Assembly (NCBI GenBank): GCA_002311835.1 | Contig: DBZY01000013.1 | Coordinates: 6,664 to 60,913, forward strand | Direction: 5' to 3' | DNA: 54,250 bases | Source: Proteobacteria bacterium UBA1148 | Lineage (GTDB): Bacteria; Pseudomonadota; Gammaproteobacteria; Steroidobacterales; Rariloculaceae | Part shown: piece after piece, positions 22,659 to 50,905 of the stretch | Position numbering within the stretch: the stretch's first letter is position 1 | Layout of the letters: each line of letters starts with the position of its first letter | Notes under the pieces: model-generated | Told to the model about the DNA's origin: nothing | The model's database searches: none | What the model saw: only the letters and a program-made list of their open reading frames with translations | Position numbers and translations under genes: made by a program

Positions 22659-22669
22659 GGATCATTCCT

Positions 22670-26642: not shown

Positions 26643-27569
26643 TTACGGATCTAACGAAGCCAGATATGCTGCGATTGCAATCATATCGTCTTCGGTAAGG
26701 CTTGCTACGGTCGCCTGCATGAGAGCAGTCTGAACACCCGCACGATCGCCAGTCTGAATGTCGTTGAGTTGCCGTACGGCATAGAGTGGCGAGATTCCGC
26801 GGATGGATGGAATTTCGCCAATACCTCGTAACTCGGCGCCATGGCAAATAGTGCAGGCAATGGTCCGGCCATCCCCGCCCGTTGTAATCAACTCCTCGCC
26901 TCTCGCCAGACTACCCACCGGCACATAGGCGATAAAACCCGCGTAAGGATGCTTTGCAGTGACGAGCTCGCGGTTTTGAGGAAGTTCAACAATACGGTTA
27001 CCGAGTAGTTCGGTGCCACCGCTAGAGTCGCGAAAGCGCATGCGGCCGTCCCCCACGTAACTCCTCGGTACTGAGTCAGCCTCGACCACCTCAACCCAAT
27101 CGATGGGCTCGATTGCAGTGTAATACTCAGCGGCTTCACGCGTAGCTTCGACCGAAAGCTCTCGCGCGAAGTCATTCATCCAATACCGGTCCTTCCTGGC
27201 GCCGCTCCTAAAGTCTTCCATCTGGCGCATAAAGTATTCGACTGGGAGACCGGCTAGTTGCGACGATTCAGGATGCCCCATACCTGATGTTAAGTGGCAG
27301 GACGCGCACGCTCGAACGTTCCCGGGGCCTCGAGCGACAACTGCCGGTAACGGCGAATGATCGTTGGGAAACCAGTCCGGCGGATTCCAGTCATCGTCGA
27401 TCTCCGCTTGACTGTAGCTTCGGGAGCTGCCGGGCACCATTCTCGGGGCGTTTATATCGATCTCGTTTGGAGGAATCGTTTCGACAACCTGATATGCCCA
27501 TTCCTGAGCAACACCAGTAGTGGAAGTAACAAGCCATACTGTGGCGAGTAACGCGATCGTGCTCTTCAT
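26643..27569 (-). CDS. periplasmic diheme c-type cytochrome
   Basis: 308-aa ORF with a signal peptide and two CxxCH heme motifs (CASCH, CTICH). It starts 7 nt after the upstream paralog B gene. Confidence 0.85.
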   Translation of the reverse strand: MKSTIALLATVWLVTSTTGVAQEWAYQVVETIPPNEIDINAPRMVPGSSRSYSQAEIDDDWNPPDWFPNDHSPLPAVVARGPGNVRACASCHLTSGMGHPESSQLAGLPVEYFMRQMEDFRSGARKDRYWMNDFARELSVEATREAAEYYTAIEPIDWVEVVEADSVPRSYVGDGRMRFRDSSGGTELLGNRIVELPQNRELVTAKHPYAGFIAYVPVGSLARGEELITTGGDGRTIACTICHGAELRGIGEIPSIRGISPLYAVRQLNDIQTGDRAGVQTALMQATVASLTEDDMIAIAAYLASLDP

Positions 27570-27576
27570 GGAACGT

Positions 27577-28245
27577 TTAACTCAGCACACACGCTGCGTC
27601 GCGATCGATATCGTCCGCACGCACGTAACTGTGTTGGACGTTCAGCGAGAATGTATAGTACTTAGGATCAATGAGGTTGATATCCACGGTAAGGTGGTTG
27701 TGGTCCTCACTCAACCTGTAACGCTCAACCATCTGGGCTATCGAGCCACCGAACGGCAACGGCCGCTCACCTGATTTGAATACACCTTCAGAGAAATGCG
27801 TAGTTCGTATCACGAGCATATCTCCAGCCCAACGCGCCGTTGACCAACCCAGTCTGCCCGGCATGAAGGTCACCGGTGGCTCAAGCCAGAAATCCATGTG
27901 AACACGGCGCGTTCTACCGAATGCGGACAGGTCGATCGTCTCGCCCCGGTCAACAATCTCAAAGTCCGCCGCCTCGCCCGCCAAAGCTCCTGCCATTAGA
28001 CATGAACCAGCGTCTGCGTTAGCTTGGTATGACGCCCGGAAGGCCTCACCCGGGTCACGTAAATTACTCTCTGCCACTGAGATGAACCGTCGTTGTTCAA
28101 GTGTCTCTGTACGACTTGCATTATCTTCAACCCACAACCCCTGCAATGTCGACTGTAAGGGGTGAGGCTCCTGAGCAAAAACCGAAGAACTCTCCCAGTT
28201 CACTAGAAACACTAATGAGCTGAGTAGTGACCACTTCGAGATCAT
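27577..28245 (-). CDS. uncharacterised secreted protein, W(E/D)GDTLVV-motif family (paralog B)
   Basis: Shares LQGLW, RRVHMD, LGWSTARWAGDMLVIRT, RPLPFGG and ERYRLSED with 28296..28970. ATG at 28245 has an upstream AGGAG/AAGGAG and yields a clean signal peptide. The ORF track extends to a TTG at 28299. Confidence 0.7.
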   Translation of the reverse strand: MISKWSLLSSLVFLVNWESSSVFAQEPHPLQSTLQGLWVEDNASRTETLEQRRFISVAESNLRDPGEAFRASYQANADAGSCLMAGALAGEAADFEIVDRGETIDLSAFGRTRRVHMDFWLEPPVTFMPGRLGWSTARWAGDMLVIRTTHFSEGVFKSGERPLPFGGSIAQMVERYRLSEDHNHLTVDINLIDPKYYTFSLNVQHSYVRADDIDRDAACVLS

Positions 28246-28295
28246 TCTCCTTGTTCTCCTTGAAGCTTCTTGGTCGATCGCACTAACCAACCAAT

Positions 28296-28970
28296 TCAAT
28301 AAATACTCGGCACGCAGTCAATGGCGAAGATAGTCCTATTCGACCGAACGAAGGTGTGACGCATTTCAATAGGTGCAATATAGTACTTTGCATCGATACG
28401 CGTTACATGTAGAGACAACGTATTAAGATCATCGCTCAAGGTATAGCGTTCAATCATTTCGGCGTCGGGACCACCGAATGGAAGTGGTCGATTACCCGTA
28501 TCGATCGTGCCTTGTGTAAAGTCATTTGTTCTCACCACTAAGGTATCTCCGTCCCAGTGCCCCTCGGACCAACCCAACTTGTTCGGCCAGAAGTCGTTCG
28601 GCGGGTCACGCCCATCCATATAGACACGCCGCACCTGTTCAAATCCAACTAAGTAGAGTACTTCTTGCGTGTCGAGGAACTCCAGGGTATAGCCAAACCC
28701 GCCATGCGCCGCCGCCGACCTCCGCTGACATGTCGCAGTATTATCATTTTCCTCGATAGCCCATCGCCGTCGAAAATCCTCAGCCTCTGCCGTCAATAGT
28801 GCCTCTGCTGCCATATCGAGCATGTTCTCGCTTGAGGCACTGCCGTTTCTTGGCTGCTCCCAAAGACCCTCCAAAACCGCTTGCAATTGATGAAATTCCT
28901 GAGCGAATGCGCTACCCACTGTACCCAGGAGGAACGTCAACAGGAGAATCACGAATCGCTTGAAAATCAT
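28296..28970 (-). CDS. uncharacterised secreted protein, W(E/D)GDTLVV-motif family (paralog A)
   Basis: 224-aa ORF with a signal peptide (LLTFLLGTVGSAFAQE). Motifs are LEGLW, RRVYMDG, LGWSEGHWDGDTLVVRT, RPLPFGG and ERYTLSDD. Confidence 0.7.
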   Translation of the reverse strand: MIFKRFVILLLTFLLGTVGSAFAQEFHQLQAVLEGLWEQPRNGSASSENMLDMAAEALLTAEAEDFRRRWAIEENDNTATCQRRSAAAHGGFGYTLEFLDTQEVLYLVGFEQVRRVYMDGRDPPNDFWPNKLGWSEGHWDGDTLVVRTNDFTQGTIDTGNRPLPFGGPDAEMIERYTLSDDLNTLSLHVTRIDAKYYIAPIEMRHTFVRSNRTIFAIDCVPSIY

Positions 28971-28985
28971 GGTGGGCTCAGTTTT

Positions 28986-29429
28986 CTAATCCGCTTCCGA
29001 AGCTCGTAGGTACCGGTCCAAGTTACCCCGAACCTCCCTGCCATCCTCAAACGTAAACTGAATCAGAGCCATCACTGGCCTGCCGGAAAAAGCAGGGAAG
29101 CCCAAAACCGTCACTCTAGAACCCACGGGCAGGGTATCCCTGTTCCAGCCCCGTTCCGTCATACTTCGCGCTGCACCTGTTTCTATCGCCCAAGCCACAG
29201 CGTCGCCCTGCTCGTCTTCAATCTCCAAAGTAATTCTTGAATGCGGGTTAGCTATTCTTACTTCGGTAATCACACCCTCAACGGTTACTCGCGCCCGAAC
29301 ATCGAAATAGGCGTTAAAGTTATGGTGAGTGTAACCAATGGACGCGACGAACAACCAGCCAAGACCCGCAAACAAACCACTCATCGCTATTCTAGAGATC
29401 ATTGATACAGACCATACCCTCGAAACCAC
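28986..29429 (-). CDS. small secreted HH...NPH-motif protein (DUF6152-like; family name from memory)
   Basis: The ORF has a hydrophobic leader followed by THHNFNAYFD-x-ANPHSRITLEI. It is a paralog of 47594..47965. The start is uncertain; ATG at 29402 is an alternative. Confidence 0.7.
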   Translation of the reverse strand: MVSRVWSVSMISRIAMSGLFAGLGWLFVASIGYTHHNFNAYFDVRARVTVEGVITEVRIANPHSRITLEIEDEQGDAVAWAIETGAARSMTERGWNRDTLPVGSRVTVLGFPAFSGRPVMALIQFTFEDGREVRGNLDRYLRASEAD

Positions 29430-29529
29430 TAAAATGGAACTCAGTGGCTCATCTCTGAAAATACTTAAGTCGGTTTAGATGCACCAGTCAGGTATTATTA
29501 AGTCTCAAAATCAAGAATTTTGAAGAACC

Positions 29530-30564
29530 ATGAACCCATCGATTAACATCCGGTTAGCTGCAACATTAACTGTTGCCATAGTAGCTGGGTGCAGCGGTAA
29601 CCTTGGGATGCTCGAGCTCAGTGGGTACACCATGGGAACCAGCTATTCGGTTAAAGCCGTGCGTTCAGACGCATCAATTTCACTCGAACCACTGAGTAAC
29701 CGCATCAGTGTCCGCTTGGAGGAACTGGAGAATCTGTTCTCTACCTATCGCGAGACATCTGAAATCAGTCAATTTAACGCCCATGCCGGCAATGAGTGGT
29801 TCGAGATCCATCCAGCCTTTCTAACAGTGCTAACGAGGGGAATAGATATCAGTGAATTTTCTGATGGAGCATTCGATATAACGGTTGGCCCATTGGTAGA
29901 GTTGTGGGGTTTCGGGGCAAGTAACTCGATCAATATGGTTCCGACACAAGCGGAGATCGATTCCATGCTAAAGGTAACTGGATTTAATTACGTTGAAGTC
30001 CAATCATCACCGCCAGCCATACGCAGAACCCAGTCTGGCGTCAAGCTTGATCTATCCTCCATTGCAAAAGGATTCGCTGTAGACGAGATCTCTACACTGT
30101 TGGATAGTTCTGGCCTGACCTCTTATATGGTTGAGATAGGTGGAGAAGTGCGTGCCCGGGGCATGCGGGCCGATGGCAGTAATTGGCTGATCGGTATTGA
30201 AAATCCTATCTCAATAAATGGACTAACAGACAGCATCCAGGATGTCGTCTATCTGCGGGATGCTGCCATTGCCACGTCGGGCGATTATCGGAATTACTTT
30301 GAATACGAAGGTAACCACTACTCCCACACACTTGACCCTCGGACTGGCTGGCCAGTTTCCCATGGACTCACATCAGTCAGCGTCATTGAACGGTCGGCAA
30401 TGAACGCCGATGCCCTTGCAACAACACTCATGGTGCTAGGCCCTGAACTGGGCCTACAGCTTGCGACCCGTGAAAATATTGCAGCCCTACTGATTCTGAG
30501 AGCTGATGGGGAATTGAAAATTTTGCAGTCACCAGCTTACAAAACATATCTTGCAAATCGCTGA
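29530..30564 (+). CDS. apbE: FAD:protein FMN transferase (ApbE family lipoprotein)
   Basis: 344-aa ORF with a lipobox (IVAGC). MGTSYSVK follows just after the leader, and SSIAKGFAVD and TSGDYRNYFE are ApbE-like strings. Confidence 0.85.
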   Translation: MNPSINIRLAATLTVAIVAGCSGNLGMLELSGYTMGTSYSVKAVRSDASISLEPLSNRISVRLEELENLFSTYRETSEISQFNAHAGNEWFEIHPAFLTVLTRGIDISEFSDGAFDITVGPLVELWGFGASNSINMVPTQAEIDSMLKVTGFNYVEVQSSPPAIRRTQSGVKLDLSSIAKGFAVDEISTLLDSSGLTSYMVEIGGEVRARGMRADGSNWLIGIENPISINGLTDSIQDVVYLRDAAIATSGDYRNYFEYEGNHYSHTLDPRTGWPVSHGLTSVSVIERSAMNADALATTLMVLGPELGLQLATRENIAALLILRADGELKILQSPAYKTYLANR

Positions 30565-30639
30565 TGGTTGATTGGCCATTCGTCCGAACTCAAAACTTCA
30601 AATATAATTCATTCATCTTTTTGACTCATAGGAACCCAC

Positions 30640-31389
30640 GTGGGAATCATTACGCCAACCAATAAGACAGCTACAACGCTCACAGGACTACATCTTTATC
30701 ACTTCAGCAAATCTAACTGTTCTATGCGCGTACGCATAACACTGGAAGAAAAATGCGTGCCTTGGGTCAGTCACCATCTGGACTTGCACAAAGCCGAGAA
30801 CATTACCCCCGAGTATTTTGATATTCACCCTAAAGGATTAGTACCAACCCTGGTGCATGATGGTGTCGTCATTATCGAGTCTACCGACATCATCTATTAC
30901 CTTGATGACGCGTACACTAACCCACCGCTTCGACCAAAAAATAAGCTTGATCAGAAAAAAATGCTCGGCTGGATGCGTCTAGCAGCAGACCATCACATCC
31001 ATGTAAAAACGTACATGTTTGCAAACCAGATCGGGAAAAGTATGGCCAAAAACGAATCCGAACTGAACTTTTATCGCCAACTACAAAAAAACGAAGAGCT
31101 ACTTGAATTTCATATAGAAAACTCATTGCCAGAGGGCTTATCCAAAAAGCGCATAGCCAAAGCGATAAAAAAACTAAATAACTGCTTTTCGAGAATAGAG
31201 CGTAAGCTGGAAGAACAAGAATGGACTGCTGGCGATGCCTTCTCTCTATCAGACATCACTTGGATACCGCTGTACGTTACTTTGCATAGTGCCAAGTTCC
31301 CATTCGAAAATTACCCAAATATTATTCGTTGGAAAGAGGCTATATGGAAGCGCCCCAGCTTCCAAAAAGCAGTATTAGAATGGACGTAA
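30640..31389 (+). CDS. glutathione S-transferase family protein
   Basis: 249-aa ORF with a thioredoxin-like N-domain (LYHFSKSNCSMRVRITLEE...GLVPTLVHDGVVIIESTDI) and a helical C-domain. GTG start in the ORF track. Confidence 0.75.
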   Translation: MGIITPTNKTATTLTGLHLYHFSKSNCSMRVRITLEEKCVPWVSHHLDLHKAENITPEYFDIHPKGLVPTLVHDGVVIIESTDIIYYLDDAYTNPPLRPKNKLDQKKMLGWMRLAADHHIHVKTYMFANQIGKSMAKNESELNFYRQLQKNEELLEFHIENSLPEGLSKKRIAKAIKKLNNCFSRIERKLEEQEWTAGDAFSLSDITWIPLYVTLHSAKFPFENYPNIIRWKEAIWKRPSFQKAVLEWT

Positions 31390-31430
31390 AAGGTTAATCG
31401 TTACTGACATCCTAGAGCAAAATATTTTAC

Positions 31431-33413
31431 TCAACCAAACAATATGGAAGGATGGAAGAGCAACCGCATCAGTTGCCCATAAAAACCCCAAACAATTAAC
31501 AATGCAGCACTGGAGTAGATTGCCACCGTCGTCCACTTATAGTTACCCCAGATTACCAAATACCCGGCCACGAAAAGCGGTAATGCCACAAGTTGCCCAG
31601 CCAAATAAGCTATTCCAATCGTGGCAAGAATAAACCCGATGAATACCAGACTGGGTTTTAGATTCGCCTTATCCGCTGCAACATTCCAGGCACGGCGCAT
31701 GCCCCCACCCGAGGTGATAGATGCCCAGGCTGCTCGACCATCTTTTACAAGAATCCAAAATGACAGCGGCAGTGCAGTCAAGAGAATAATGTGTGGAAAC
31801 TGAGCAGTTGCTGCCCCTTGGAAGCCAAGCGTGACAAAATATCCAATAGAAAACATTACAAAAAGACCAACAGCCAACGGCGTGGAAATTAGGGCATTAC
31901 GGGTTGCGCCCTCACCAGCCTCGGATGATTGATCCCCTTGTGGTTTTAGGGCGCTTTTTATGGCAAATACAAAAGTAATAATGATTAGAATCTCAATCAA
32001 AACCACCACTGGTCGGTTGTAGAGCCAAGCGTAATTCCCATAGATTTGCGTAGTGAGTTGAAAATTATTTTCCATCAATCCCCCAAGCACTAAAGCCAAT
32101 ATCAGGGGTGGTCGCGCCCAACCGCCCTGCTTCATCCAATAACCAAGCACACCGAATACTAGGCAAGTCCACCAATCACCCATGGAGTTTGTTGCTACCC
32201 AGGTGCCCATCAGTAATACCACCATAACGCCCGGTACGATGAGGTGACCTGGCAAAAACGCGATTTTGTGGATGTGTCTACTAAGAAGCATCAGAAGGCC
32301 TGCGGCGACTAGATTTGCAATGACTATCGCCCAAACCATGCTAAAGGTAAGAGGGAGATTAACTGTCAACATATCTGGCCCCGGCCGTAAACCTTTGAGC
32401 ACCAACGCACTCAAAAGTATTGCCGTGCCAATACTGCCAGGAATTCCAAACGCTACCGTAGGAATTAATGCCCCCGCCTTGTGGGCATTGTTCGCAGTTT
32501 CAGGAGCGATGACACCTCGAATATCGCCCTGACCGAACTGTGTTTTGTCCTTGGAACTCTGTACGGCGTGACCATATGCAATCCAGTCCACTATTGCCGC
32601 ACCTAACCCCGGCAACATACCAATGTACGTACCAAGAAATGCACATCGCAGAACTAACCAACGATGATGAAACGCATCCTTTACGCCCTGAAGTAAACCA
32701 GTGGTTGGGTCCTCACTGCGAGCCACACGTGAGATTGAGGTATTTTGAACAGCCAGTTCCATGAGCTCTGGAATACCAAATAGCCCAAGCACGATAGGAA
32801 TAATCGGCACACCATCTAAAAGGTAGTTCACTCCAAAATAGAACCTGGGTACCCCAGTAGCATCAGCGTAACCCACAGTAGTCAACAACAAACCTAAAAG
32901 AGCCACTGTGAGGCCCTTCAAAAGCGAACGCCCGGAAAGCACGCCAACCATGGTGAGGCCAAGCACGGCAAGCATAAAAAACTCGGGCACACCAAAAGCA
33001 AAGATGACCGGCAAGATAATAGGCAAAGAAACCGCTAACAGAACTGCGCCCAGCACTCCACCGAAAGCTGAGACCGTGTACGTTGCACCAAACGCGCGCG
33101 CAGCCTGTCCCTTTTTTGCTAAAGGATAACCGTCCAGAATAGTAGCTTGCGAGGCAACGGTACCCGGAATCCCTAGCATAATCGACGCAATGCTGTCGCT
33201 TGTGGAGGTCACTGCATACATACCGAGAAGCAGTGCAAAAGCCGGCACCGGGTCCATGCCGAATGTGAACGGTAACATCAAAGCCAGCCCAACTGCGCCA
33301 CCGAGTCCTGGTACCGCCCCGATCCATATCCCAAGAAACACGCCAAGCATTAGATAACCGGGTGTAGGCCAGCTTAGGGCTAACTCAAGTCCACTCAGCA
33401 TTCCTTCAAGCAT
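31431..33413 (-). CDS. tctA: tripartite tricarboxylate transporter permease, TctA with a C-terminal TctB-like extension
   Basis: 660-aa polytopic ORF with a TctA-like N-terminus (GAVPGLGGAVGLALMLPFTFG...). That is about 150 aa longer than typical TctA. The tail has about four extra TM helices, and no separate tctB ORF is present. Confidence 0.8.
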   Translation of the reverse strand: MLEGMLSGLELALSWPTPGYLMLGVFLGIWIGAVPGLGGAVGLALMLPFTFGMDPVPAFALLLGMYAVTSTSDSIASIMLGIPGTVASQATILDGYPLAKKGQAARAFGATYTVSAFGGVLGAVLLAVSLPIILPVIFAFGVPEFFMLAVLGLTMVGVLSGRSLLKGLTVALLGLLLTTVGYADATGVPRFYFGVNYLLDGVPIIPIVLGLFGIPELMELAVQNTSISRVARSEDPTTGLLQGVKDAFHHRWLVLRCAFLGTYIGMLPGLGAAIVDWIAYGHAVQSSKDKTQFGQGDIRGVIAPETANNAHKAGALIPTVAFGIPGSIGTAILLSALVLKGLRPGPDMLTVNLPLTFSMVWAIVIANLVAAGLLMLLSRHIHKIAFLPGHLIVPGVMVVLLMGTWVATNSMGDWWTCLVFGVLGYWMKQGGWARPPLILALVLGGLMENNFQLTTQIYGNYAWLYNRPVVVLIEILIIITFVFAIKSALKPQGDQSSEAGEGATRNALISTPLAVGLFVMFSIGYFVTLGFQGAATAQFPHIILLTALPLSFWILVKDGRAAWASITSGGGMRRAWNVAADKANLKPSLVFIGFILATIGIAYLAGQLVALPLFVAGYLVIWGNYKWTTVAIYSSAALLIVWGFYGQLMRLLFHPSILFG

Positions 33414-33551
33414 GCTGATTCTGTTTCCTAACCACGCCGTCCTTTCATGCCGGCAAGGTTTGCGCTCTTAACTCGTACTCTGGTTACAGGGAAAAAAGCG
33501 AATTGTGATATTAGTGTGGTTAATTTATGAGCGCTTGCACCAACGAACAGG

Positions 33552-34664
33552 TTACCGCACTTCATCGATATAGGCTTCCAGAAAAGCTGTAACGTCCTCG
33601 GGCACGTCATACAAGCTTCGGAGGATTTCTGTCCCCTCCTCAGCTCCAACCAAGGGCAAACTAAATCCGTACATTGTCTGCTCTTCCGCCTTATATTCTG
33701 GATCTTCAGTTACTTTCACAAAGCTTTCGCGGAGAATACTCACCCTCTCCTCTGGAGTCTCAGGCGGCAACAGCGCCGCATACACGATATTATTTACCCG
33801 AGGCAGTATCCACTTATACATCTCGTATATCCGACCTGAAGGCGGAGAACCGTGCACTTTCTCGTAGAACTCCATGTAACTCGGAATATCAGATACGACT
33901 TCTAGTGGCTCTACATTACCGGCAGTATCCGCAGAAGGATTATGCCAAAGAGGTATCGCGAGCCCTTCGTTCACTAACGTGGGTTCGATGGAAAAGCGAT
34001 ACAACCCCAAAGAGGCTACTTGAATATCCACCTCACCACGACGCACCGCATTAAAAACATCGGCTCCACCCGAGAACCCCGTGACATACTGATACTCAAC
34101 ACCAAGTGCATCCAATGCAAGTCGACCAAGAAGATCAAAACGAACCACAGGATTCTGCCCACCGAATCGTAGCCCCTCGGCACTCAGAAGCTCCTCGGGG
34201 CTCGCTACCTTCTCGGTGCGAACATAGGCCATATTTGGACTCAGCAACCCCCCCACGAAGGGCATCGTAGAAAAATTAGCACGAAGCCCAGGTTCCTTGA
34301 GAATAGCCGCCGCCCCGTTAGTCGGAGAAAAAAACACATGCAGACCGTCATTTGCCGCAACTTCTGCACCGTAGTTCCACACCCGCGTACCCCCCCCACC
34401 AGGCAGGTTACGAACAATAATGGTTGGCTCACCTGGAATGTAGCGCGACCAGAACTGAGAGAACACACGCGCTGCAAGATCAGCTCCGCTACCCGGTGTT
34501 CGACCGACATAGAGCGTGAGCGTCTTACCCTGGTAGTAAGGTTGGTCCTGGGCATAGGAGGGGGTTACCACGCCTACAATTGCGATTACTGTGATAATCG
34601 CAATCGCGGGAACAGGCAGAAAAAATGGCAATTTGCTCTCGATTCTTATTTGTCCCAGTACCAT
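33552..34664 (-). CDS. TctC/Bug-like periplasmic substrate-binding protein
   Basis: 370-aa ORF with a signal peptide. GRTPGSGADLAARVF...IVRNLPGGGGTRVWNYG mirrors the Bug/TctC N-terminal binding motif. It lies upstream of tctA. Confidence 0.6.
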   Translation of the reverse strand: MVLGQIRIESKLPFFLPVPAIAIITVIAIVGVVTPSYAQDQPYYQGKTLTLYVGRTPGSGADLAARVFSQFWSRYIPGEPTIIVRNLPGGGGTRVWNYGAEVAANDGLHVFFSPTNGAAAILKEPGLRANFSTMPFVGGLLSPNMAYVRTEKVASPEELLSAEGLRFGGQNPVVRFDLLGRLALDALGVEYQYVTGFSGGADVFNAVRRGEVDIQVASLGLYRFSIEPTLVNEGLAIPLWHNPSADTAGNVEPLEVVSDIPSYMEFYEKVHGSPPSGRIYEMYKWILPRVNNIVYAALLPPETPEERVSILRESFVKVTEDPEYKAEEQTMYGFSLPLVGAEEGTEILRSLYDVPEDVTAFLEAYIDEVR

Positions 34665-34687
34665 CCATCATTCCTTATAGACGCACC

Positions 34688-36021: not shown

Positions 36022-36036
36022 TAGGCAGCGCCCCTC

Positions 36037-36846: not shown

Positions 36847-36870
36847 AGCCTTTCCTTTATCTGTAAACTT

Positions 36871-37947: not shown

Positions 37948-37992
37948 CCTCGCATTTCCCTTTGAAATATAAGGCTTTCAGACAACAGTATT

Positions 37993-38709: not shown

Positions 38710-38746
38710 GCGAGAATATTAAGATGATGAAAGGAGAGGAAAGCCC

Positions 38747-39034: not shown

Positions 39035-39040
39035 GCAAAC

Positions 39041-40213: not shown

Positions 40214-40330
40214 CAACCCTCTATCCCAATACTTCAAGCTGCCCTCGAAGCTATCCGCTAACGAAGGCCTATATATTAACCAGACTAGTTGAGTCCGCTA
40301 CTCTCGGGGATACAGTTGTACTGGTAAAGC

Positions 40331-40911
40331 TCAAGGCTGGCAATCGTAAGCGTAGAGTTGCAGATGTGGCGAATACACCATCTCAGTTCGTCCCTCGAAG
40401 GGTTCCGCTAAAAACTCGGGATCTTCCACGAACACATCTACGATCGCCCGTGTACCGTCATCGCTCAACGAGAAGCGTTCGACCACATGCTTTTGTGCCC
40501 CTGAGGGCACGCCGCCTGAACTGTTCCCCGCACGGTGAGAGGACAGAAGCGTTGTGTCTACTACTAGCGTATCGCCCTCCCACCAACCGACGGAGTGGCC
40601 TTGATTTGTTCGTTCCCCGTTCTCCGGGTGATCTGCGACCATCCATGTATACCGTGCGTGACATGTCGAAGAACTCGTTCCTCAGGATCACGCGATCCTC
40701 GCGCAACTCAATACCGCTTAAGTAGTTAGTACTGGAGTTCAGAAATGGCGGCGGTATCGGGACGCATTGCACGTTGGGACTGTCCGTAACTCTATCGTAT
40801 GAGGCGACGGCGGTCTCTCCGGCGGGCGTTAAGACTAATCGATCTGGTCTGCCCCCCCAAACCGGTGCTGCGGACCCCCCTCCAGACGCCTTCTAGGCTC
40901 GAGGCGGCAAC
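40331..40911 (-). pseudogene. frameshifted remnant of the W(E/D)GDTLVV-motif secreted protein family
   Basis: Family motifs are split across three frames: LEGVWRG; then LTPAGETAVASYDRV...VQC...RTVYMDG; then DHPENG...GHSVGWWEGDTLVVDTT...ERFSLSDD. One shift maps to a C7 run (40852..40858) and a second near 40630. No signal peptide and no own start codon. Confidence 0.8.
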
Positions 40912-41302
40912 TGTTACCTCAGCCTTCCCCTCGACTTGCGACCAGAGTCTGCCGTCAGTTGTCTCTAAGGTATTTAAAATGGCCCGTGCGCTGACCCGAC
41001 CGCATGGGGGTGTGCACGAATCGTCACTGTTTGACCGGGATCCAATAGGTCTTGCGACCAGCCACTTCGAATCATGATCGGCGTCGAGCCGCTCTCGATC
41101 TCCCACTCGACCCTTCTCACCGGTTTCGTCTTCTGTTTCGACGAAGATCGTCACGTGGGGGTTACGAAAAATATAGCGTGCGACCTCGGCGTCGAACGCT
41201 ACGATGGTCTTCGTAATCGTAGACCGCATCACTGTGGTGACTCTTAGCGTGATTTCCTCCCAGAATTACCATCGCTAATGCCATAATGCATAAAATTCTC
41301 AC
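40912..41302 (-). pseudogene. frameshifted remnant of the HH...NPH (DUF6152-like) gene
   Basis: Leader plus SHHSDAVYDYE reads in one frame and TIVAFDAEVARYIFRNPHVTIFVETEDETGEK in a second. VEWEIESGSTPIMIRSGWSQDLLDPGQTVTIRAHP reads in a third frame, then the sequence returns for AILNTLETTDGRLW. That makes at least three frameshifts, and the stop codon separating it from the next gene is lost. Confidence 0.8.
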
Positions 41303-41457
41303 GCCTTATCTCCTGAAATTGGTAGCTGGGATCTGAGTCAGCTAGGGCCCAGGCGGCATAATATCAATGGTATCTTCGTCCTGCTAGACGTAGTCAATCC
41401 GCAAGTTTTACAACAAATAATGAATATCTCCTGTGGATTGAGTCACTTATGGTTATT

Positions 41458-41487
41458 TTGATATATGTATATTATTTTTGGTAATAT
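41458..41487 (+). promoter_or_regulatory. sigma70-like promoter candidate for 41518..41775
   Basis: TTGATA (41458..41463), an 18-nt spacer, then TAATAT (41482..41487). An AGGAG lies 7 nt before the TTG start. Confidence 0.4.
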
Positions 41488-41517
41488 ACAACTCGTGCCG
41501 CACACTAGGAGACGTCG

Positions 41518-41775
41518 TTGAATCTGGTACGAGCGTTCAAAGAGCATCCAGAATCTGTTGGAGAGACGTACACCGAACATCTCGTTGCTGCACTGGGATT
41601 CGCTGCCACAATGATGCGGGCAGCTATTTGTTGCATTGTGCATGCCTTCGTACCGTGTCTTTTTACGAACACAGGCAGTCGAGCCGTCAAGAAACTCTCT
41701 AAAAGGATGGATCGTGGGCACTCTCCTCCTGCCACCATCACCACAGAACAACAAACGGTATCCCAGCACTATTGA
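41518..41775 (+). CDS. small membrane protein, DUF6356-like (family name from memory)
   Basis: 85-aa ORF. EHPESVGETYTEH...IVHAFVPCLFTNTGS matches my recollection of this small conserved family. It has a good RBS and a TTG start. Confidence 0.55.
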   Translation: MNLVRAFKEHPESVGETYTEHLVAALGFAATMMRAAICCIVHAFVPCLFTNTGSRAVKKLSKRMDRGHSPPATITTEQQTVSQHY

Positions 41776-41779
41776 GTCG

Positions 41780-42409
41780 CTAATCGAGTTGTTGTAGCGG
41801 AGGTTCAGCGCTTCCCGGAGCTGGCGTTCGGGCCGTGTTCATAGTCATTGCAAGCATAGTGTAATAACCGATGATCCCCACTGTATCTATAACCCCTTTC
41901 TCACCGAACATCTCAAGCGCCTGAGCATAAGTTGCATCGCTGACAGCCTTATCTCGATTCAGCTCCGTAAAAAATGCGTACAAAACCGCCTCATCTTCAG
42001 CTAAACCTTCTAAAGGGCGACCTTCGGCCAAAGCACTCACGATCTCCAAGCTAACCCCGACATCAAGAGCGATTTGATGGTGCGCATACCACTCGTATGG
42101 CTGTGTCCACTCCCGGGCTGTCATAAGAATAACGAATTCGCTGAGTCGAGGCGGTAAGCTACTATTGAAGCGCAGATAGTCCCCCATGGCTCGCGCGCGA
42201 GTCAGGACCTCCGGGCTCCGTAGCAATGGCACCCATGGCCCTCGTGGGCCATAGCCACGCATCTCCACCAGTTCCGCAACCGCAGCGGCCTGTTCAGCAG
42301 TAAGGCTCTCCGACGGGATTGGTGGCAGACGATCCTGAGCAAAAACTAGATTCGCCACCAAAAACATCACAGGGATGGCAACTAAAATAGGCCGTTTGAT
42401 TAAAATCAT
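41780..42409 (-). CDS. carboxymuconolactone decarboxylase (AhpD-like) family protein, secreted
   Basis: 209-aa ORF with a signal peptide (VMFLVANLVFAQD) and the CMD-like core MTAREWTQPYEWYAHHQIAL. Confidence 0.7.
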   Translation of the reverse strand: MILIKRPILVAIPVMFLVANLVFAQDRLPPIPSESLTAEQAAAVAELVEMRGYGPRGPWVPLLRSPEVLTRARAMGDYLRFNSSLPPRLSEFVILMTAREWTQPYEWYAHHQIALDVGVSLEIVSALAEGRPLEGLAEDEAVLYAFFTELNRDKAVSDATYAQALEMFGEKGVIDTVGIIGYYTMLAMTMNTARTPAPGSAEPPLQQLD

Positions 42410-42635
42410 GATGCTCCAAATTCATTAGACAGTAGGATCGCGTATCGAAAACTGACGCGTAGAACACTACACTTGTATCAGGATATCACAACAAAAAACT
42501 GCTCCTGACGGTTACAATAAAACAGTAATAGTTGTTAAACATCATCACGCATTCTATGGCAGATAATTTTTATACCCGGATGCAGTCATACAAAGTACCC
42601 GCGTATAATATGCGGAGGGGCAATAGGGAGAAAAT

Positions 42636-43679
42636 ATGATTAAAAATACTTTGAGTCTCGCTCTTACACTAAGTGTTTTATTGGTTGGATTTTTCTCCTC
42701 AAGCTCCGGTCAAGAAGTACCGCAGCGTGTTATCACGCACGTAACGGGTGACTTTTATCGAGCCCAGAATAACAATCATAACTCTGCATTCCTGGTTACC
42801 CCCGAAGGCATTATCGTCGTGGACCCTCTCAATGAAGATTTCGCTGAGTGGCTCAAACAAGAACTAGATGAGAGATTTGGCGTTCCGGTCAGATACGTTC
42901 TCTACAGCCATCATCATTGGGACCATGCTTCGGGAGGAGCTGTATTTGAAGATACCGCTCAATTCGTGGGGCATGCCAACATGCTAACCCACCTGGCAAT
43001 GCCACCAGATTCTACGACACTATCCGATGTCATCGGTCAATACGCACCCGTAGCCGCACTGGACACCAACGCCAATGGACAGATCGAACCTAGCGAAGCC
43101 GCCGGTAATGATACCGACGCCCCATTCTCCGCTTTCGATGCTAACGGTGACGGTCTGTTAAGCGGCGCGGAAGTCTTAAGAGGACCGTTAAGCCAAGTAC
43201 GCCCACCAACTATTACGTACCAGAACAAACTCGAAATCACACTCGGCGGTAAGCGAGCAATACTAGAGTGGGTTGGAGAGATGAATCACTCCCTTGATAT
43301 GAGCCGAATCATCTTCCCAGAGGAAAGCGTGATGATGGTAGTAGACTACATCACATTCGGCCGCCTACCTTACAGAGAACTGGACTATGAACTCGGCATG
43401 TTCCAAGAATGGATGGCAGCGATCCGAGAAGCAGAAGAGACGTCAAAGAATTACGAGTACGTTACGACAGGACATGGACCACTAGGCAACTGGGAAAACG
43501 TGACCGAATGGCGAGTGTATTTCGAGAAATTACATGAAGTGGTCGCGACTGGAATCACCGAAGGTCGATCTCTGGCAGAAATGCGAGAAAATATTCGTAT
43601 TCCCGAGTACGAACACTGGACTGGCTACAACTGGCTTCATGAGAACGTGCTAGGGATGTATCACTTCCTAACCGATTGA
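42636..43679 (+). CDS. secreted MBL-fold metallo-hydrolase with an inserted EF-hand pair
   Basis: 347-aa ORF with a signal peptide and the HxHxDH motif (SHHHWDHASGG). It carries two canonical 12-residue EF-hand loops, DTNANGQIEPSE and DANGDGLLSGAE (nt 43062..43172). Confidence 0.8.
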   Translation: MIKNTLSLALTLSVLLVGFFSSSSGQEVPQRVITHVTGDFYRAQNNNHNSAFLVTPEGIIVVDPLNEDFAEWLKQELDERFGVPVRYVLYSHHHWDHASGGAVFEDTAQFVGHANMLTHLAMPPDSTTLSDVIGQYAPVAALDTNANGQIEPSEAAGNDTDAPFSAFDANGDGLLSGAEVLRGPLSQVRPPTITYQNKLEITLGGKRAILEWVGEMNHSLDMSRIIFPEESVMMVVDYITFGRLPYRELDYELGMFQEWMAAIREAEETSKNYEYVTTGHGPLGNWENVTEWRVYFEKLHEVVATGITEGRSLAEMRENIRIPEYEHWTGYNWLHENVLGMYHFLTD

Positions 43680-43734
43680 ACATGCCCTTGTTCACGCAAG
43701 ACTCCCGTGGGATATCGCCCTGACGACATCACTC

Positions 43735-44766
43735 GTGAATGTCTGTGCAAACGATCTTGAGATATTCAGTCGAGAGATCTTCAAGCGCGCGGGCTTATCC
43801 GAAGAACACGCTCAAACTCAAGCTAATATTCTTGTGTGGGCTAATTTGCGCGGCATTGACTCTCACGGCGTGCTCCGCATCCCACGCTATCTCGGCTGGT
43901 TACAAAAAGGAATAATGAACTCAGTGCCAAATATTAGTATTACTAAGCAAACCCCCTCCTCTGTGCTCATTGATGCAGATAAAGCTCCGGGCGCACTATC
44001 AATGAGTTTTGCTATGGAGCAGTCTATCGAGAAAGCACAGAAAGCAGGTATTGGCTGGGCGTTCGTTAAGCACACTACTCATTCTGGACCAGTGGGGTAC
44101 TACGCCCAACTAGCAGTGCGAGAGGAAATGGTTGGAATTGTGATCGTGACTAGCCGGCCTAACATGGCTTACTTTGGCTCAAAAGCAGCAGGGGTAGCCA
44201 CCAATCCAATTGCAATCGCTGTGCCAGGTGGACCTGACGGTTCCGTCATGCTCGATATGGCTAGCAGTGAACTAGCTATTGGTAAAATAAAAGATGCTCT
44301 AGCCCGTGAAGCAGTACTGCCAGAAGGTGGGGCGTTAACGAAAGAAGGTCGCCCGACCACGGATCCGGCTGAAGCAGCCATCCCCATGCCGCTGGGCGGA
44401 GCTAAGGGGTCCGGCCTCTCTCTCATGTTCGAGACCCTTGTCAGCCTTCTGATCGGAAACCCACTACTAGAACCTGCGCTAGCTGGGAGGGAACAAGATC
44501 ATAGCCAGAACGGTCTGGCTATTGCCGTTAATATTTCAACCTTTACGGACATTGATGATTACAAAAAATGTATGACTGCCCTTGCTCAAGCTCTCAAAGA
44601 ACTCCCCCCCATGAAGTCCGGTGGCGAGATCTTTTTGCCCGGTGAGATAGAGATTCGGAAGCTCGAAGAACGACGCCGCGTTGGCATCCCCATACCTACT
44701 AGAATTTGGAACCAACTCTCCGCTTCAGCAAAAACGCTGAATGTACCGATGCCAGAAACCACTTAA
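43735..44766 (+). CDS. Ldh family 2 (malate/L-lactate/ureidoglycolate-type) oxidoreductase
   Basis: 343-aa ORF with GIDSHGVLRIPRY and a later PLGGAKGSGLSLM, typical of the Ldh_2 family. GTG start. Confidence 0.8.
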   Translation: MNVCANDLEIFSREIFKRAGLSEEHAQTQANILVWANLRGIDSHGVLRIPRYLGWLQKGIMNSVPNISITKQTPSSVLIDADKAPGALSMSFAMEQSIEKAQKAGIGWAFVKHTTHSGPVGYYAQLAVREEMVGIVIVTSRPNMAYFGSKAAGVATNPIAIAVPGGPDGSVMLDMASSELAIGKIKDALAREAVLPEGGALTKEGRPTTDPAEAAIPMPLGGAKGSGLSLMFETLVSLLIGNPLLEPALAGREQDHSQNGLAIAVNISTFTDIDDYKKCMTALAQALKELPPMKSGGEIFLPGEIEIRKLEERRRVGIPIPTRIWNQLSASAKTLNVPMPETT

Positions 44767-44775
44767 GAAAAGGCT

Positions 44776-45042
44776 ATGAGCATCTATCAGGTTCAGAAAC
44801 TTATCCAAACCGTGAATCGAGAACAAAAATCACGCGAAGAATTTTTAGAATCTCGAGAATCTCTGGCTGATAAGTTTGTGCTAACGAATACGGAATATCA
44901 GGCCATTGTAGAACTTGACATCAACACCCTCTACGAAATGGGAGTACATCCACTACTGCTCAGACCTTTCACTATTATCCACGGTGTTTCAGAACCCGAT
45001 TATCTAAAAGCTATCCGTGAGGGGATTGATTCGTGCCCGTAG
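44776..45042 (+). CDS. LigA-like small subunit of a class III extradiol dioxygenase
   Basis: 88-aa ORF with an all-helical pattern ending ...LYEMGVHPLLLRPF..., as in protocatechuate 4,5-dioxygenase alpha subunits. It overlaps the LigB-like gene by 10 nt. Confidence 0.65.
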   Translation: MSIYQVQKLIQTVNREQKSREEFLESRESLADKFVLTNTEYQAIVELDINTLYEMGVHPLLLRPFTIIHGVSEPDYLKAIREGIDSCP

Positions 45043-45842
45043 TATTCACTTGCTCAGTGAGTCATACGCCTGGCATTCGTGCATGGGCTGAGGCAGCGGA
45101 TTCCGATCAGAAAGAACGTCTCTATTCTGGTTTCGGCGAACTACACAAGCGTATGGAGGCGGCAAACCCCGACACCATACTGATCATTAGTAGCGAACAT
45201 TTTGCAAACTTCTTCCTAGACTGTATGCCAGCATTCACTATGGGGCAGGCCGAAACGTATTTCGGCCCCATAGAGCCCTGGGTCAAAATTGACCAGGGAC
45301 TGACGACTGGAGATCCTGAGCTTTCTGAGCGACTTCTAAGCGCCTGTTACTCAGACGGCGTGGAGCTCAACTATGCACACGAAATGAAGCTCGATCATGG
45401 TGTCATGATCCCCTTAAGCTTTCTTGATCCAGCTCGCGGACTACCTATAATTCCGCTCATTATTAATGCAATGACACACCCGATGCCAAAGCTGACACGT
45501 TGCTATGAACTAGGCCAGGCATTAGCCCGGGCTCTAAAAATGGAATCTCGTCGTGTTGCCGTCATCGCAGCGGGAGGCCTGAGTCACGCACCGGGCGAGC
45601 GCATGCATGGAGAGATTGATACTGAATTCGACCAAGAATTTATACGTCGTCTCGTCGCGAACGAGGTGAACGCTTTCACATCTTATACAGATCAGGAGAT
45701 AGAGCGGACTGGTCTCGGGACACATGAAATCCGCTCCTGGATAACCGCTGCTGGAATCGCTGGAAACAAGCAAGCGAAGGCAATTTTTTATGAACCTATC
45801 ACTGCCTGGGCAACGGGCTGTGGGTTACTCTACTACGCCTAA
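45033..45842 (+). CDS. class III extradiol ring-cleavage dioxygenase, LigB-like catalytic subunit
   Basis: 269-aa ORF. It has the N-terminal SVSHTPG, then SSEHF, a later GGLSH and an overall LigB pattern. GTG start. Confidence 0.75.
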   Translation: MPVVFTCSVSHTPGIRAWAEAADSDQKERLYSGFGELHKRMEAANPDTILIISSEHFANFFLDCMPAFTMGQAETYFGPIEPWVKIDQGLTTGDPELSERLLSACYSDGVELNYAHEMKLDHGVMIPLSFLDPARGLPIIPLIINAMTHPMPKLTRCYELGQALARALKMESRRVAVIAAGGLSHAPGERMHGEIDTEFDQEFIRRLVANEVNAFTSYTDQEIERTGLGTHEIRSWITAAGIAGNKQAKAIFYEPITAWATGCGLLYYA

Positions 45843-45865
45843 CGTGTTGCTATATCCAATACTGA

Positions 45866-47233
45866 TCACAGTTGAACAACAAAATTTGCTTCGGTCTTCT
45901 CCTCGACTTCCTTGAGCGTCACTCCAGGCATAACCTCCACTAAAGTTAGTTGACCATCAATAAACTGAAACTTTGCTAACTCGGTAACCAGCACTGTTAC
46001 GGCGTTAACCGCGGTCAGAGGCAATGTGCACTCCTTGACGACTTTGGATGAGCCGTCTCGGCTCGTGTGCGTCATAGTAACGATCAATCTCTTTGCCCCA
46101 GAAGCTAGATCCATAGCTCCACCCAGACCCAGAAGTGGCTTACCAGGCACCGCCCAGTTAGACAAATTCCCTTGCTCATCGACCTGCAACCCACCCAGTA
46201 TCGCCACATCCAGATGCCCACCTCTAATCATCGCGAAAGAACTAGCGCTGTCAAAGTAGCTACTTCCGGGTAATGCGGTTACAGGAATCTTGCCTGCATT
46301 GACTGGATAATCCATTGCACCACCGGACTCCGGCTCGGGACCAACTCCTAACATGCCATTCTCACTATGCACCGTAATGTCCAACTCCGGCGTAATGAGA
46401 TCCGCAACCAGGGTGGGAATCCCAATCCCCAGATTCACGACATCTCCAGGTCTAAGTTCTTCTAGTGCCGATTTGGCCATTCTCATCCGAGACTCATCAA
46501 CCTTTTTCAAACTGCTAGCCACCGAAGCGGATGAACCTAGCTCTTCAAGAGTTGTATGAGCCTGAACCAAATAGTCTACGAAACAACCGGGTGTATGAAT
46601 GTGATTGGGATCAAGTTCTCCGATCGGTACGATATGTTCCACCTCAGCGATAACAATCTTACCTGCAGTGGCCGCTGCCTGATTGAAATTATTTTCCGTC
46701 ATTCTATACACGAGATTTCCCGCTAAATCCGCCTGCCAGGCGCGGACTAATGCAACATCTGCCGTCAACGCAGGCTGAACAATATATTCCTTACCGTCAC
46801 TTACATAGTTATCACAACCCTCTGAGAACTGGGTCCCTGCTCCAGTGGGGGTCAAAAATCCTCCAAGACCCGCACCACCTGCACGAATCGCTTCTGCGAG
46901 ATTACCCTGAGGTAACAACTCTACCTCCAGATCACCTGACTGGAACGCCTCGACGACCTCCGGGTTGGTCGTAAAGAAAGACCCAATCGCTTTTTTCAAT
47001 TGCCCGTTACGCAACATCCGGCCTCCACCCATACCAGGCTCACCAACATTGTTGCTGATCATTGTCAGATTCTTTACATCCGTCTCGGCGATAGCATCCA
47101 ATAAATGTATCGGTGTCCCAGTCATACCAAAACCGCCCACAACGACAACATCACCGGACTTAATTTTCAGTGCTGCCTCTTTAACAGAGATCTGAGGTAC
47201 CTTCTTCATAAGACAATCAACATGGTTCATCAA
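45866..47233 (-). CDS. family I CoA-transferase with fused A and B subunits (3-oxoacid CoA-transferase type)
   Basis: 455-aa ORF. The N-terminal half carries [19 protein letters not shown] (subunit A). The C-terminal half carries GIGIPTLVA and the catalytic SENG motif (VHSENGMLG) of subunit B. Confidence 0.85.
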
Positions 47234-47593
47234 CGATTGCTTTATACTTTAAAAACATTACCTTATTAAATAATCCTAAACTGATACAAAGCTTATTTAT
47301 GTGTATCTAGAGCATCCCTCGTAGTTTATCCACCCTCAATAGAAATACTTGTCGATGGGACCACTATTTGATTCTAGTGTCTGAAAACAACACTCGTGGA
47401 CTGAGTAGATTCTAAGGCGCTGAGAGGGAGTTCATTATCACCTATGGATCAGGAAAAAAGCGGCTGGCTACTAGTGGCAGTAGGCATGGCTCATCCGAAT
47501 TTAGGCTGATTTATTGGGCAAAATAGCGCAGCTTTATCTATCAGTATGGCGCATCTCTTTGTCGTCACACAATAATTTGAGCGTGGCCGTTCG

Positions 47594-47965
47594 CTAGAGG
47601 ATCTCGAGGGAATCTCTATCTAGCGATAATTTCCGTCTACCTTCTCGACCAAGATCGCCAGATACTTGGATGCGATCCCCGACTTCAATCGTTTCAATGG
47701 TCCAGCCAGACCTCGCCATAACCCCCAGATTCGCAGACTCCACATCCCATATCTCCATAACCCCATCGCCTCTTGCAACTTCTAGATAATAGTGGACATG
47801 TGGATTCCCCCAAAACACCTCCACCACCACACCTTCGATTGTGCCAAGCTCATCGACGTAGTTGGCTGCATACGCATGATGCCCTCTTGCCAGCGAACCC
47901 CCCAAAGCGGAGAAGCACGAGAACGCTAACAACCAAAATAGCATCTTCATCTTTAACCCTCCCAA
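47594..47965 (-). CDS. small secreted HH...NPH-motif protein (DUF6152-like), copy c
   Basis: 123-aa ORF with a signal peptide, then GHHAYAANYVD-x-GNPHVHYYLEV. It is a paralog of 28986..29429. ATG at 47950 is an alternative start. Confidence 0.7.
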   Translation of the reverse strand: MGGLKMKMLFWLLAFSCFSALGGSLARGHHAYAANYVDELGTIEGVVVEVFWGNPHVHYYLEVARGDGVMEIWDVESANLGVMARSGWTIETIEVGDRIQVSGDLGREGRRKLSLDRDSLEIL

Positions 47966-47986
47966 ACGCGATGAATTAACGGTCTC

Positions 47987-49021
47987 TTAGAGACGATTAC
48001 TGGAGCGCCCCCAATGTTCTTCGAGCCGACCCTCCAAATATAAGCCACGGTAAAAAGGATACGGGTCACAGGAATATGCGGGAATTTCTGTATCTTCGGA
48101 CTGTTTTATTCGCACTTGATGCATCAACCCAGGGCGATGGTAGTTCACCGGGTCATCCATGCTGAACTCAATATGAAGTCGACCATCATCATCGAGATAC
48201 CAGCGTTCCGTAAAAACTGCGTTTGATGAAATGGGCATACCTGGAGCATCCCATACTCCTCTCTTGAGGCCTCGGGTTTCAATTACAAAAGTGGAACCTT
48301 CCCAATGCCCGATAGAATATCCCATCGACAGGTTCATATTTTCTATATCATCGGGAAAACCTCGATCTAGGTAAACCCGGCGTATTTCGTGCATATCCTC
48401 ATACAAAATGATGATGCGATTGTTAACATCCAATACCTCAATATCGAATGGACCATGCGACATACGGATCATCCCATCTGATACGCAACGCAAAATTGGG
48501 TCGTCCATGGTCTCATCGTACACGGCATCAGCTGTACGCCCGGCCTCAGTCAAATCAAATACACCCTTACCAATGTAATCGGGCTCTCCCCAGATCCCTG
48601 TAAGATCAACTGGATTGGGAGGCGGAGGAGAGCCGGGCCTCACCAGTCGGGTGGCGCGCCAAGCACCTCTATCTTCTCCATCCTCTGTAACCGTTCCGTG
48701 GATACTGCCATTCTCTAGAACGCCTTCCAGAACACTGAGGTGCGGCTGATCTGGTAAATCAACCCAATCCATATCGAAACTAATCCGATTACCATCGAGT
48801 TCTATCAAGTTTACGGGGCCTCCATCAATATAGATTTCCAAACCTCCCGCACCACTCTCGATCGCCAACGTGCCGTAAGCCGGTCTGTATTCATAACCCG
48901 ACTCAACCCAAAGTTCCCACAGACTCACAAAGACATCCTCTTGTTGGGCAGAGACATAAGGCACGACGAGTGCAAATAAGACAACCGCAATTACTCCAAG
49001 CCGTTTTAATAATTCGAACAT
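47987..49021 (-). CDS. uncharacterised secreted protein, W(E/D)GDTLVV-motif family with an extra N-terminal domain, copy c
   Basis: 344-aa ORF with a signal peptide. The C-terminal ~220 aa carry LTGIW, LTEAGRTADAVYDE, RC, RRVYLD, GYSIGHWEGSTFVIET and ERWYLDDD. About 110 extra residues precede LTGIW. Confidence 0.7.
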   Translation of the reverse strand: MFELLKRLGVIAVVLFALVVPYVSAQQEDVFVSLWELWVESGYEYRPAYGTLAIESGAGGLEIYIDGGPVNLIELDGNRISFDMDWVDLPDQPHLSVLEGVLENGSIHGTVTEDGEDRGAWRATRLVRPGSPPPPNPVDLTGIWGEPDYIGKGVFDLTEAGRTADAVYDETMDDPILRCVSDGMIRMSHGPFDIEVLDVNNRIIILYEDMHEIRRVYLDRGFPDDIENMNLSMGYSIGHWEGSTFVIETRGLKRGVWDAPGMPISSNAVFTERWYLDDDGRLHIEFSMDDPVNYHRPGLMHQVRIKQSEDTEIPAYSCDPYPFYRGLYLEGRLEEHWGRSSNRL

Positions 49022-50871: not shown

Positions 50872-50905
50872 TACCTCTTTAATAAGACGTCTCGTTGCTT
50901 GCGAG

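Follow-up and report, generated by a model that had tools for sequence, protein, structure and literature searches.

A small secreted DUF6152 protein and a predicted barrel protein as a recurrent, often fused pair: a candidate periplasmic module in a gammaproteobacterial contig

In the histidine brace, an N-terminal histidine (His1) binds copper through its amino group and its imidazole, together with a second histidine, and the site is unmasked by removal of the signal peptide (PMC10952591). Among secreted His1 proteins, a survey has identified binders of nickel and of copper whose folds are unrelated (PMC12537917). The family DUF6152 (PF19649) is already held in Pfam, where its model, of about 100 residues, is limited to the small domain and the family carries no assigned function; it is absent from the main text of both papers and from the supplements of the second, and no paper mentioning DUF6152 or PF19649 was found in the searchable literature. 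The subject of this work is a stretch of 54,250 nucleotides from Proteobacteria bacterium UBA1148 (Gammaproteobacteria, Rariloculaceae; GenBank assembly GCA_002311835.1, contig DBZY01000013.1, positions 6,664 to 60,913 of the forward strand), hereafter the window, in which an initial annotation, made from the sequence alone, had noticed small secreted proteins paired with larger ones at three minus-strand loci within 23 kb. The small proteins (S), which that annotation had likened to DUF6152, are members of this family: S1, S3 and the N-terminal half of locus 2 (Table 1) lie well above its gathering cut-off of 27 bits, an intact sibling of locus 2 carries PF19649, and all 64 of the tested proteins in which S is fused to the large protein (L) match it. 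No description of the large family, of S-L fusion or pairing, or of the placement of a His-His doublet at the cleavage site was found in the searchable literature.

S and L almost certainly work together, because in other bacteria they are often fused into one protein. The homologue list of L1a, the first large protein of locus 1, includes proteins of about 335 amino acids (aa) in which PF19649 is joined to an L match (P0020-P0023), and a search with P0023 returned more than 2,700 matches, the best 120 of which are all 310-360 aa long and all carry PF19649. These fused relatives are named 'DUF6152 family protein' by NCBI. A scan of GTDB species genomes gave 80 loci from Acidobacteriota (Bryobacterales, Vicinamibacterales and Terriglobia), Gammaproteobacteria (Steroidobacteraceae, Rariloculaceae and Haliea) and Alphaproteobacteria (Sphingobium, Caulobacteraceae and Rhodospirillaceae). 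One match lies in the culturable Sphingobium xanthum NL9 (L041). The closest named homologues of the window proteins come from metagenome-assembled genomes of Gammaproteobacteria, from which an uncultured marine member of this class is the probable source of the window. With local hidden Markov models (HMMs), 142 L open reading frames (ORFs) were counted in the loci of 80 other genomes: 23 are fused to S, 29 are adjacent to an S gene lying upstream and 20 to one lying downstream, 11 have an S gene within 3 kb, and the remaining 59 are without a same-strand S gene within about 3 kb. An S gene was found within 300 bp of 53 of the 119 unfused L ORFs; when the S positions were permuted within the same loci (2,000 trials), this number was 16.6 ± 3.5 and never exceeded 27, and the two families thus co-occur beyond the within-locus shuffle. 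A reverse census was anchored on the alignment of one S sub-clade in 80 metagenome contigs and gave 111 S ORFs, of which 1 is fused, 43 are adjacent to a same-strand L gene, 12 have L farther away, 27 have none although 500 bp or more of flanking sequence was available, and the other 28 are too near a contig end for a judgement. S-S-S-S arrays are present among the metagenome contigs, and four consecutive stand-alone DUF6152 genes without L nearby were found at L131 and at L132. The S-L association is strong, not obligatory.

The order of the two genes varies when they are separate. L precedes S in 20 of 49 unfused pairs at the GTDB loci and in 27 of 43 on the metagenome contigs, and in a neighbour-joining tree built from 144 L domains the S-upstream and S-downstream states flip at least 12 times, with at least 7 changes of the fused state on the L-domain tree. 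The window itself holds both arrangements (S-L-L at locus 1 and L-S at locus 3), in line with the first impression that pairing is kept while order is not. Many paralogues may lie together, as shown by 8 S/L genes in the 15.9-kb locus L009 and about 11 in the 16.3-kb locus L056. The fusion protein P0023 was modelled by AlphaFold2 from 64 homologues with a mean predicted local distance difference test (pLDDT) of 89.9 and a predicted template modelling score (pTM) of 0.83, and all blocks of 10 residues between 31 and 320, including the inter-domain linker, reached at least 87. Because the linker is modelled at high confidence, the model argues for a fixed S-L interface.

Table 1. Members of the two families and the associated cytochrome c gene in the window
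Feature	Positions	Strand	Basis and remarks
S1, small secreted DUF6152 protein	28986..29429	-	Pfam PF19649, E=1.2e-21, 77 bits
L1a, secreted large-family protein, 224 aa	28296..28970	-	Predicted calycin-like barrel
L1b, L1a paralogue, 222 aa	27577..28245	-	Second large-family gene of the putative operon; local L-family HMM, E=1.9e-54
c4-type dihaem cytochrome c, 308 aa	26643..27569	-	CASCH and CTICH; Pfam Cytochrom_C, E=2.9e-10
Locus 2, one fused S-L gene (DUF6152 and barrel domain)	40331..41302	-	tblastn of fusion P0023, frames -1/-2/-3
S3, small secreted DUF6152 protein	47594..47965	-	Pfam PF19649, E=9.6e-18, 64.5 bits; 21 bp downstream of L3
L3, secreted large-family protein, 344 aa	47987..49021	-	L-family HMM, E=1.4e-48, residues 132-335; transcribed before S3

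In the small family, an alignment of 39 stand-alone S proteins from many lineages has only H, H, P and H as invariant residues, i.e. an HH doublet and an NPH motif. In 86 of 93 S domains the doublet directly follows the hydrophobic leader, and in these 86 the residue at -1 is Ala (70), Gly (7), Thr (5) or Ser (4), and that at -3 is mostly Ala, followed by Val, Leu, Gly and Ser. Since HH directly follows an AxA-type cleavage site, with the placement of the cut judged by this sequence pattern, mature S is predicted to start with His-His. The same pattern is seen in the window, where the junctions (cleavage marked by a slash) read ASIGYT/HH in S1, ARG/HH in S3 and AKS/HH in locus 2, giving the predicted mature N-termini HHNFNAYF for S1 and HHAYAANY for S3. 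NPH follows 24 residues on in S1 and 23 in S3, as first noted for the window, and a spacing of 23-24 residues is also dominant in 86 other members of the family. The order of domains in the fusions points the same way: S comes first in all 163 domain-parsed fusions and an L-S fusion was never found among them. As an L-S fusion would bury the N-terminus of S, this rule fits the need for a free N-terminal His; it is supporting evidence and not proof, the tree being rough and the fusion events not fully independent. By analogy with the histidine brace, S may bind a metal through His-His and NPH. In the P0023 model the N-terminal domain resembles OB folds in the form of the anticodon-binding domains of lysyl-tRNA synthetases (Foldseek against the PDB), and a search of the PDB with the S-family profile gave chance-level matches only. 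NPH lies in a turn after strand 1 (residues 34-45) of this model. If the segment before strand 1 folds back along it, residues 22-23 would adjoin residues 45-47, with which the spacing of 23-24 residues is consistent.

The large family is much wider than its absence from the domain databases would indicate. No Pfam or NCBIfam match was obtained for L1a, L1b or L3, nor for the barrel half of the 64 fusions even at E <= 1, and PDB searches with the fusion and L-family profiles gave chance-level matches only, which agrees with the earlier statement that neither family has been characterised. An L-domain profile matched 18,034 clusters at 50% identity (E <= 1e-3), of which 11,070 were matched at E <= 1e-10. 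The best 148 new matches have the architectures L (107), L-L (26) and S-L (15); tandem L-L fusions are thus common and are 410-530 aa long (e.g. P0155-P0170). The AlphaFold2 model of L1a (pLDDT 81.9, pTM 0.79) found avidins, an FABP-like SAHS protein and lipocalins as its best Foldseek matches, all of them weak (E 0.03-0.3), and the C-terminal domain of P0023 resembles CRABP/FABP barrels (E about 1e-3; TM 0.55-0.65 normalised to the target). The L models have 9-10 strands, and the scores of barrel superposition on FABP, avidin and lipocalin are weak, with a consistent class of matches.

The three separate large proteins of the window are homologous, as had been proposed from shared motifs (identities of 28-39%). 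These motifs are present, with the amendment that L1b reads GWSTARW, so that the fifth position of GxSxGxW is Ala and not Gly. The calycin-type GxW signature on the first strand is formed by G35 and W37 (L1a numbering, used for the following residues too), which are invariant in 32 diverse L sequences and are found in nearly all of the 142 L ORFs where this stretch is aligned. Two cysteines, C81 and C219, are invariant and not the single one counted at first; they probably form a disulfide, which fits a periplasmic protein. The invariant set further includes R114, D119, S135, W139, E174 and R175. By contrast with this scaffold, the positions equal to H223, H235 and H270 of the fusion vary by subfamily (H/L/P/F, H/Y/D/W and H/K/R, respectively). 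A conserved scaffold with variable, possibly pocket-lining positions suits diversification for different ligands.

Locus 1 consists of four genes in the order S-L-L-cytochrome c, separated by gaps of 15, 50 and 7 bp. No terminator-like site was found inside the cluster by a consensus scan, and because of this it looks like one operon. The probable start of S1 is the ATG at 29402, which gives a protein of 138 aa, and sibling contigs call the same 138-aa gene as well as an L1b gene of the length given in Table 1. L1a and L1b are 38% identical (E=2e-46). The last gene, whose end at 26643 opens the span given in the initial annotation although it is not mentioned there, encodes a protein that matched the PDB cytochrome c4 6q2u with E=3.6e-13, and both 6q2u and 1etp were matched in two stretches. 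In one sibling contig from another sample (L004:10999-11010, equal to 27907-27971 of the window, in L1b), a deletion of about 55 bp splits L1b into two ORFs of 106 aa; large-family copies may be decaying in the population.

Of the three S+L pairs proposed at first, those of loci 1 and 3 stand, and locus 2, which had been taken for remnants of two genes, is one fused S-L gene with six insertions. The fusion P0023 aligns over the whole locus, switching between frames, and its C-terminal 100 aa are 69% identical to the translated locus. The reading frame is broken by six 1-bp insertions (41211, 41116, 41010, 40987, 40844 and 40634), all of which are absent from three sibling metagenome assemblies; the only sibling that holds the whole gene (L089:5108-6073) has an intact ORF of 321 aa with PF19649. 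The sibling contigs, which derive from the same population, are 99.7-99.8% identical to the window over 6-8.6 kb, and at locus 2 window and sibling differ by exactly six 1-bp insertions and only two substitutions. All six gaps of the 8.6-kb alignment lie inside this gene, and 0-1 gaps relative to the siblings were counted in 20.7 kb around locus 1. This pattern is unusual for natural decay and may come from a sequencing or assembly error; the insertions reflect either very recent inactivation or sequence error. Read from its sequence, locus 2 is a single-chain version of the module and the third copy in this genome. It is adjoined by an ORF of 209 aa (41780-42409) with a leader-like N-terminus and no Pfam match, next to a gene for an 85-aa DUF6356 protein (41518-41775).

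At locus 3, S3 is 32% identical to S1 (E=1e-14) and L3 is 28% identical to L1a (E=3e-11). L3 carries an N-terminal extension of about 110 aa to which no fold was assigned; its reading as a degenerate DUF6152 domain was rejected (hhalign probability 0.75%). Orthologues of both genes occur at L001 in reversed order, S first (L001:11079-11468, 51% identical to S3; L001:11485-12534, 46% identical to L3). No further S or L copy was found within the window with tblastn and local HMMs, and its paralogues span identities of 28-39%. All S and L proteins of the window have leaders, as the initial annotation had read; judged from the sequence, these are of the Sec type and lack a lipobox.

The placement of the module next to catabolic clusters, pointed out at first, is not conserved. 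No conserved third partner emerged from 118 close neighbours on the same strand in the 80 genomes, which belong to 131 Pfam families, none of them seen more than 2 times, and because of this scatter both a fixed operon partner and a fixed catabolic context were rejected. The operon S-L-L-L-cytochrome c is also present in a more distant relative (L006-L008), where the L1a homologue (P0007) is 59% identical to L1a; the link S-L-L(-L)-cytochrome c is thus conserved within the locus 1 clade. With an HMM, the cytochrome was found only in the lineage of the window and at L006-L008; all of 160 other S/L loci lacked it, by which a role as general partner was rejected. Of four distant homologues of the cytochrome (54-60% identity), three (L175, L176 and L178) have S or S-L genes no more than 5 kb away, not in the same operon, and the fourth (L177) adjoins MtrA/MtrB-like genes. 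This proximity is suggestive only, since those genomes are rich in S/L copies. A divergent ApbE gene (29530-30564) was dropped as a candidate partner, because it does not stand beside the related operon in L006-L008; by eye, no flavinylation-type motif was found in S1, L1a or L1b.

We therefore tentatively favour, and rate a little below an even chance, the reading that S and L form one periplasmic functional unit with a metal site and a composite pocket, which binds or oxidises small molecules. The unit would act in the periplasm with S and L as separate chains or joined in one. Cleavage by signal peptidase would expose the N-terminal His-His of S, with NPH 23-24 residues on, and a transition metal, with copper the likeliest, could be coordinated by the three histidines and the free alpha-amino group in a site resembling the histidine brace. 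L would be a disulfide-stabilised calycin-like beta-barrel with an invariant scaffold and variable positions, presumed to line its pocket, and would be packed rigidly on S. Small periplasmic molecules would be bound or oxidised at the composite site, and each paralogue would be adapted to its own ligand; in the locus 1 lineage only, the co-transcribed cytochrome c4 would feed or remove electrons. Homology, the secretion signals, the place of His-His at the cleavage site, fusion and adjacency and the predicted folds are shown, and the module itself is secure; we infer that a metal is bound, that the site is composite and that redox chemistry takes place, if any does.

Several observations weigh against this reading. 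Of the 142 L ORFs, 59 are without a same-strand S gene within about 3 kb, many S genes have no L nearby, and each of S and L may therefore also work alone. Even the best structural matches between L and calycins score weakly, and the histidines conserved in L of the fused subfamily are not His in L1a, L1b or L3. No copper-homeostasis genes recur among the 118 putative operon mates, and the absence of the cytochrome c from the 160 other S/L loci means that redox coupling is not general. In the P0023 model, residues 18-24 have pLDDT <50, the N-terminal segment being of low confidence. A bolder form of the proposal is doubtful to us: DUF6152 and the barrel would make up a new and very large class of periplasmic copper enzymes, in which an OB-fold histidine brace is docked on a calycin-like substrate barrel and oxidises small organic molecules rather than polysaccharides, with paralogues specialised by substrate and some lineages wired to cytochrome c4.

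Two alternatives deserve weight, each of them unlikely in our judgement. In the first, the unit captures or traffics a metal without catalysis: S would sequester the metal at His-His/NPH and L would serve as docking or specificity partner, in the manner of CopC, YcnI, DUF6702 or the 'anglerases'. The N-terminal His evidence serves this explanation equally well; most of the characterised bacterial His1 proteins outside the lytic polysaccharide monooxygenases (LPMOs) bind or transport metal with no demonstrated catalysis (PMC10952591; PMC12537917), and most S/L loci are without a redox partner. However, the 118 putative operon mates show no recurrent transporter or regulator of copper, nickel or zinc, and the many paralogues per locus, as at L009 and L056, are hard to square with one or few metals, as is the difference of the pocket-like L positions between paralogues. 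The conserved cytochrome c4 operon of the locus 1 lineage also suggests electron transfer. The second alternative, which we hold to be similarly improbable, does without a metal: the L barrel would carry a small hydrophobic or aromatic molecule in the manner of lipocalins and FABPs, and S would be a lid or adaptor whose histidines touch the ligand or a partner. The predicted calycin-like fold with its GxW signature, the conserved scaffold with variation at positions 223, 235 and 270, the expansion of paralogues and the varying catabolic and transport neighbourhoods all suit such a carrier, but it leaves unexplained why His-His are the first mature residues in 86 of 93 S domains, why fusions are S-first only, why S has no invariant residues besides one proline and three histidines, and why a cytochrome c4 operon exists. 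Lastly, the absence of any functional link, with the pairs as leftovers of local segmental duplication of unrelated neighbours, could appeal to the three same-strand copies within 23 kb and is a negligible prospect, because identities of 28-39% point to old duplications and because distant phyla also have the pair, in either order, as fusions and with adjacency above the shuffle, by which duplication as the sole explanation is refuted and the functional partnership proposed at first is borne out.

Other clusters of the window are recorded here as observations in their own right. Between loci 2 and 3, an aromatic-catabolism-like cluster (42636-47233) holds a metallo-beta-lactamase-fold protein, a dehydrogenase of the Ldh_2 family, subunits of a LigA/LigB-type extradiol dioxygenase (44776-45842) and a CoA-transferase. 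Another cluster (19986-24434) includes two luciferase-like monooxygenases, a GntR regulator, a CofD-family protein and a 6-phosphogluconolactonase-like protein and adjoins a 6-phosphogluconate dehydrogenase gene (24449-26017); its genes look F420-type in a gammaproteobacterial setting, and in the related genome of L006, the CofD and lactonase-like domains are fused. An ORF of 370 aa without a Pfam match (33552-34664) lies directly upstream of a 660-aa TctA-family transporter (31431-33413) and may encode a binding or accessory subunit, so far overlooked, of the tripartite tricarboxylate transporter. The longest ORFs of an aldehyde dehydrogenase (49435-51042) and a thiamine pyrophosphate (TPP) enzyme (50906-52582) overlap by 137 bp; the Pfam match of the former begins at ORF residue 69, and its true start is probably further downstream.

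The frequent fusion to DUF6152 gives a first functional anchor for both orphan families, the larger of which comprises about 18,000 clusters at 50% identity without a Pfam model, a solved relative or a name. The His-His-at-cleavage-site rule points to a metal-bearing mature N-terminus as a concrete hypothesis. Were this metal site real, it would explain a gene family that has expanded strongly in marine Gammaproteobacteria and soil Acidobacteriota; failing that, the module remains a clearly delimited target in the search for ligands.

Compared with described systems, the cytochrome of locus 1 resembles cytochrome c4 in its two class I haem domains, each with a CxxCH motif, and differs from the classical protein in being about 120 residues longer; only in the locus 1 lineage does it stand at the end of an S-L-L operon. 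L resembles calycins such as FABP/CRABP, lipocalins and avidins in its predicted antiparallel barrel, the helical insert after the first strand and the N-terminal GxW, and ZinT/YodA is an example of a calycin that binds metal. It differs from them in that its structural matches are weak (E 1e-3 to 1e-1) with no relationship at the sequence level, in its larger size of about 200 residues and in its two invariant cysteines, and we do not recognise the core RxVYxD...GxSxGxWxGxTLVV...ER from any named calycin family. CusF and SilF, which are encoded in cus/sil efflux operons, are small periplasmic OB-fold proteins, as S is predicted to be, and set a precedent for a metal site on an OB fold; in CusF this is a His-Met-Met site capped by Trp. 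S does not belong with them: S1 and S3 have no Pfam CusF match, their Pfam matches besides DUF6152 are weak ones to OB-fold families only, the 39-sequence alignment has no conserved methionines, and efflux neighbours are lacking. The closest likeness of S is to the N-terminal-His metalloproteins, i.e. the LPMOs, CopC, YcnI/DUF1775, PmoF1, X325, DUF4198, DUF6702 and the 'anglerases', with which it appears to share a Sec leader cut right before an invariant His, a further invariant His and an extracytoplasmic location. Unlike these, S is predicted to be an OB barrel and not a beta-sandwich or cupredoxin-like fold, has a His-His doublet and frequently a dedicated barrel partner, and shows no sequence similarity to them in Pfam. 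Should the metal site prove true, the short list of N-terminal-His metalloproteins would gain an OB-fold scaffold and a two-part architecture.

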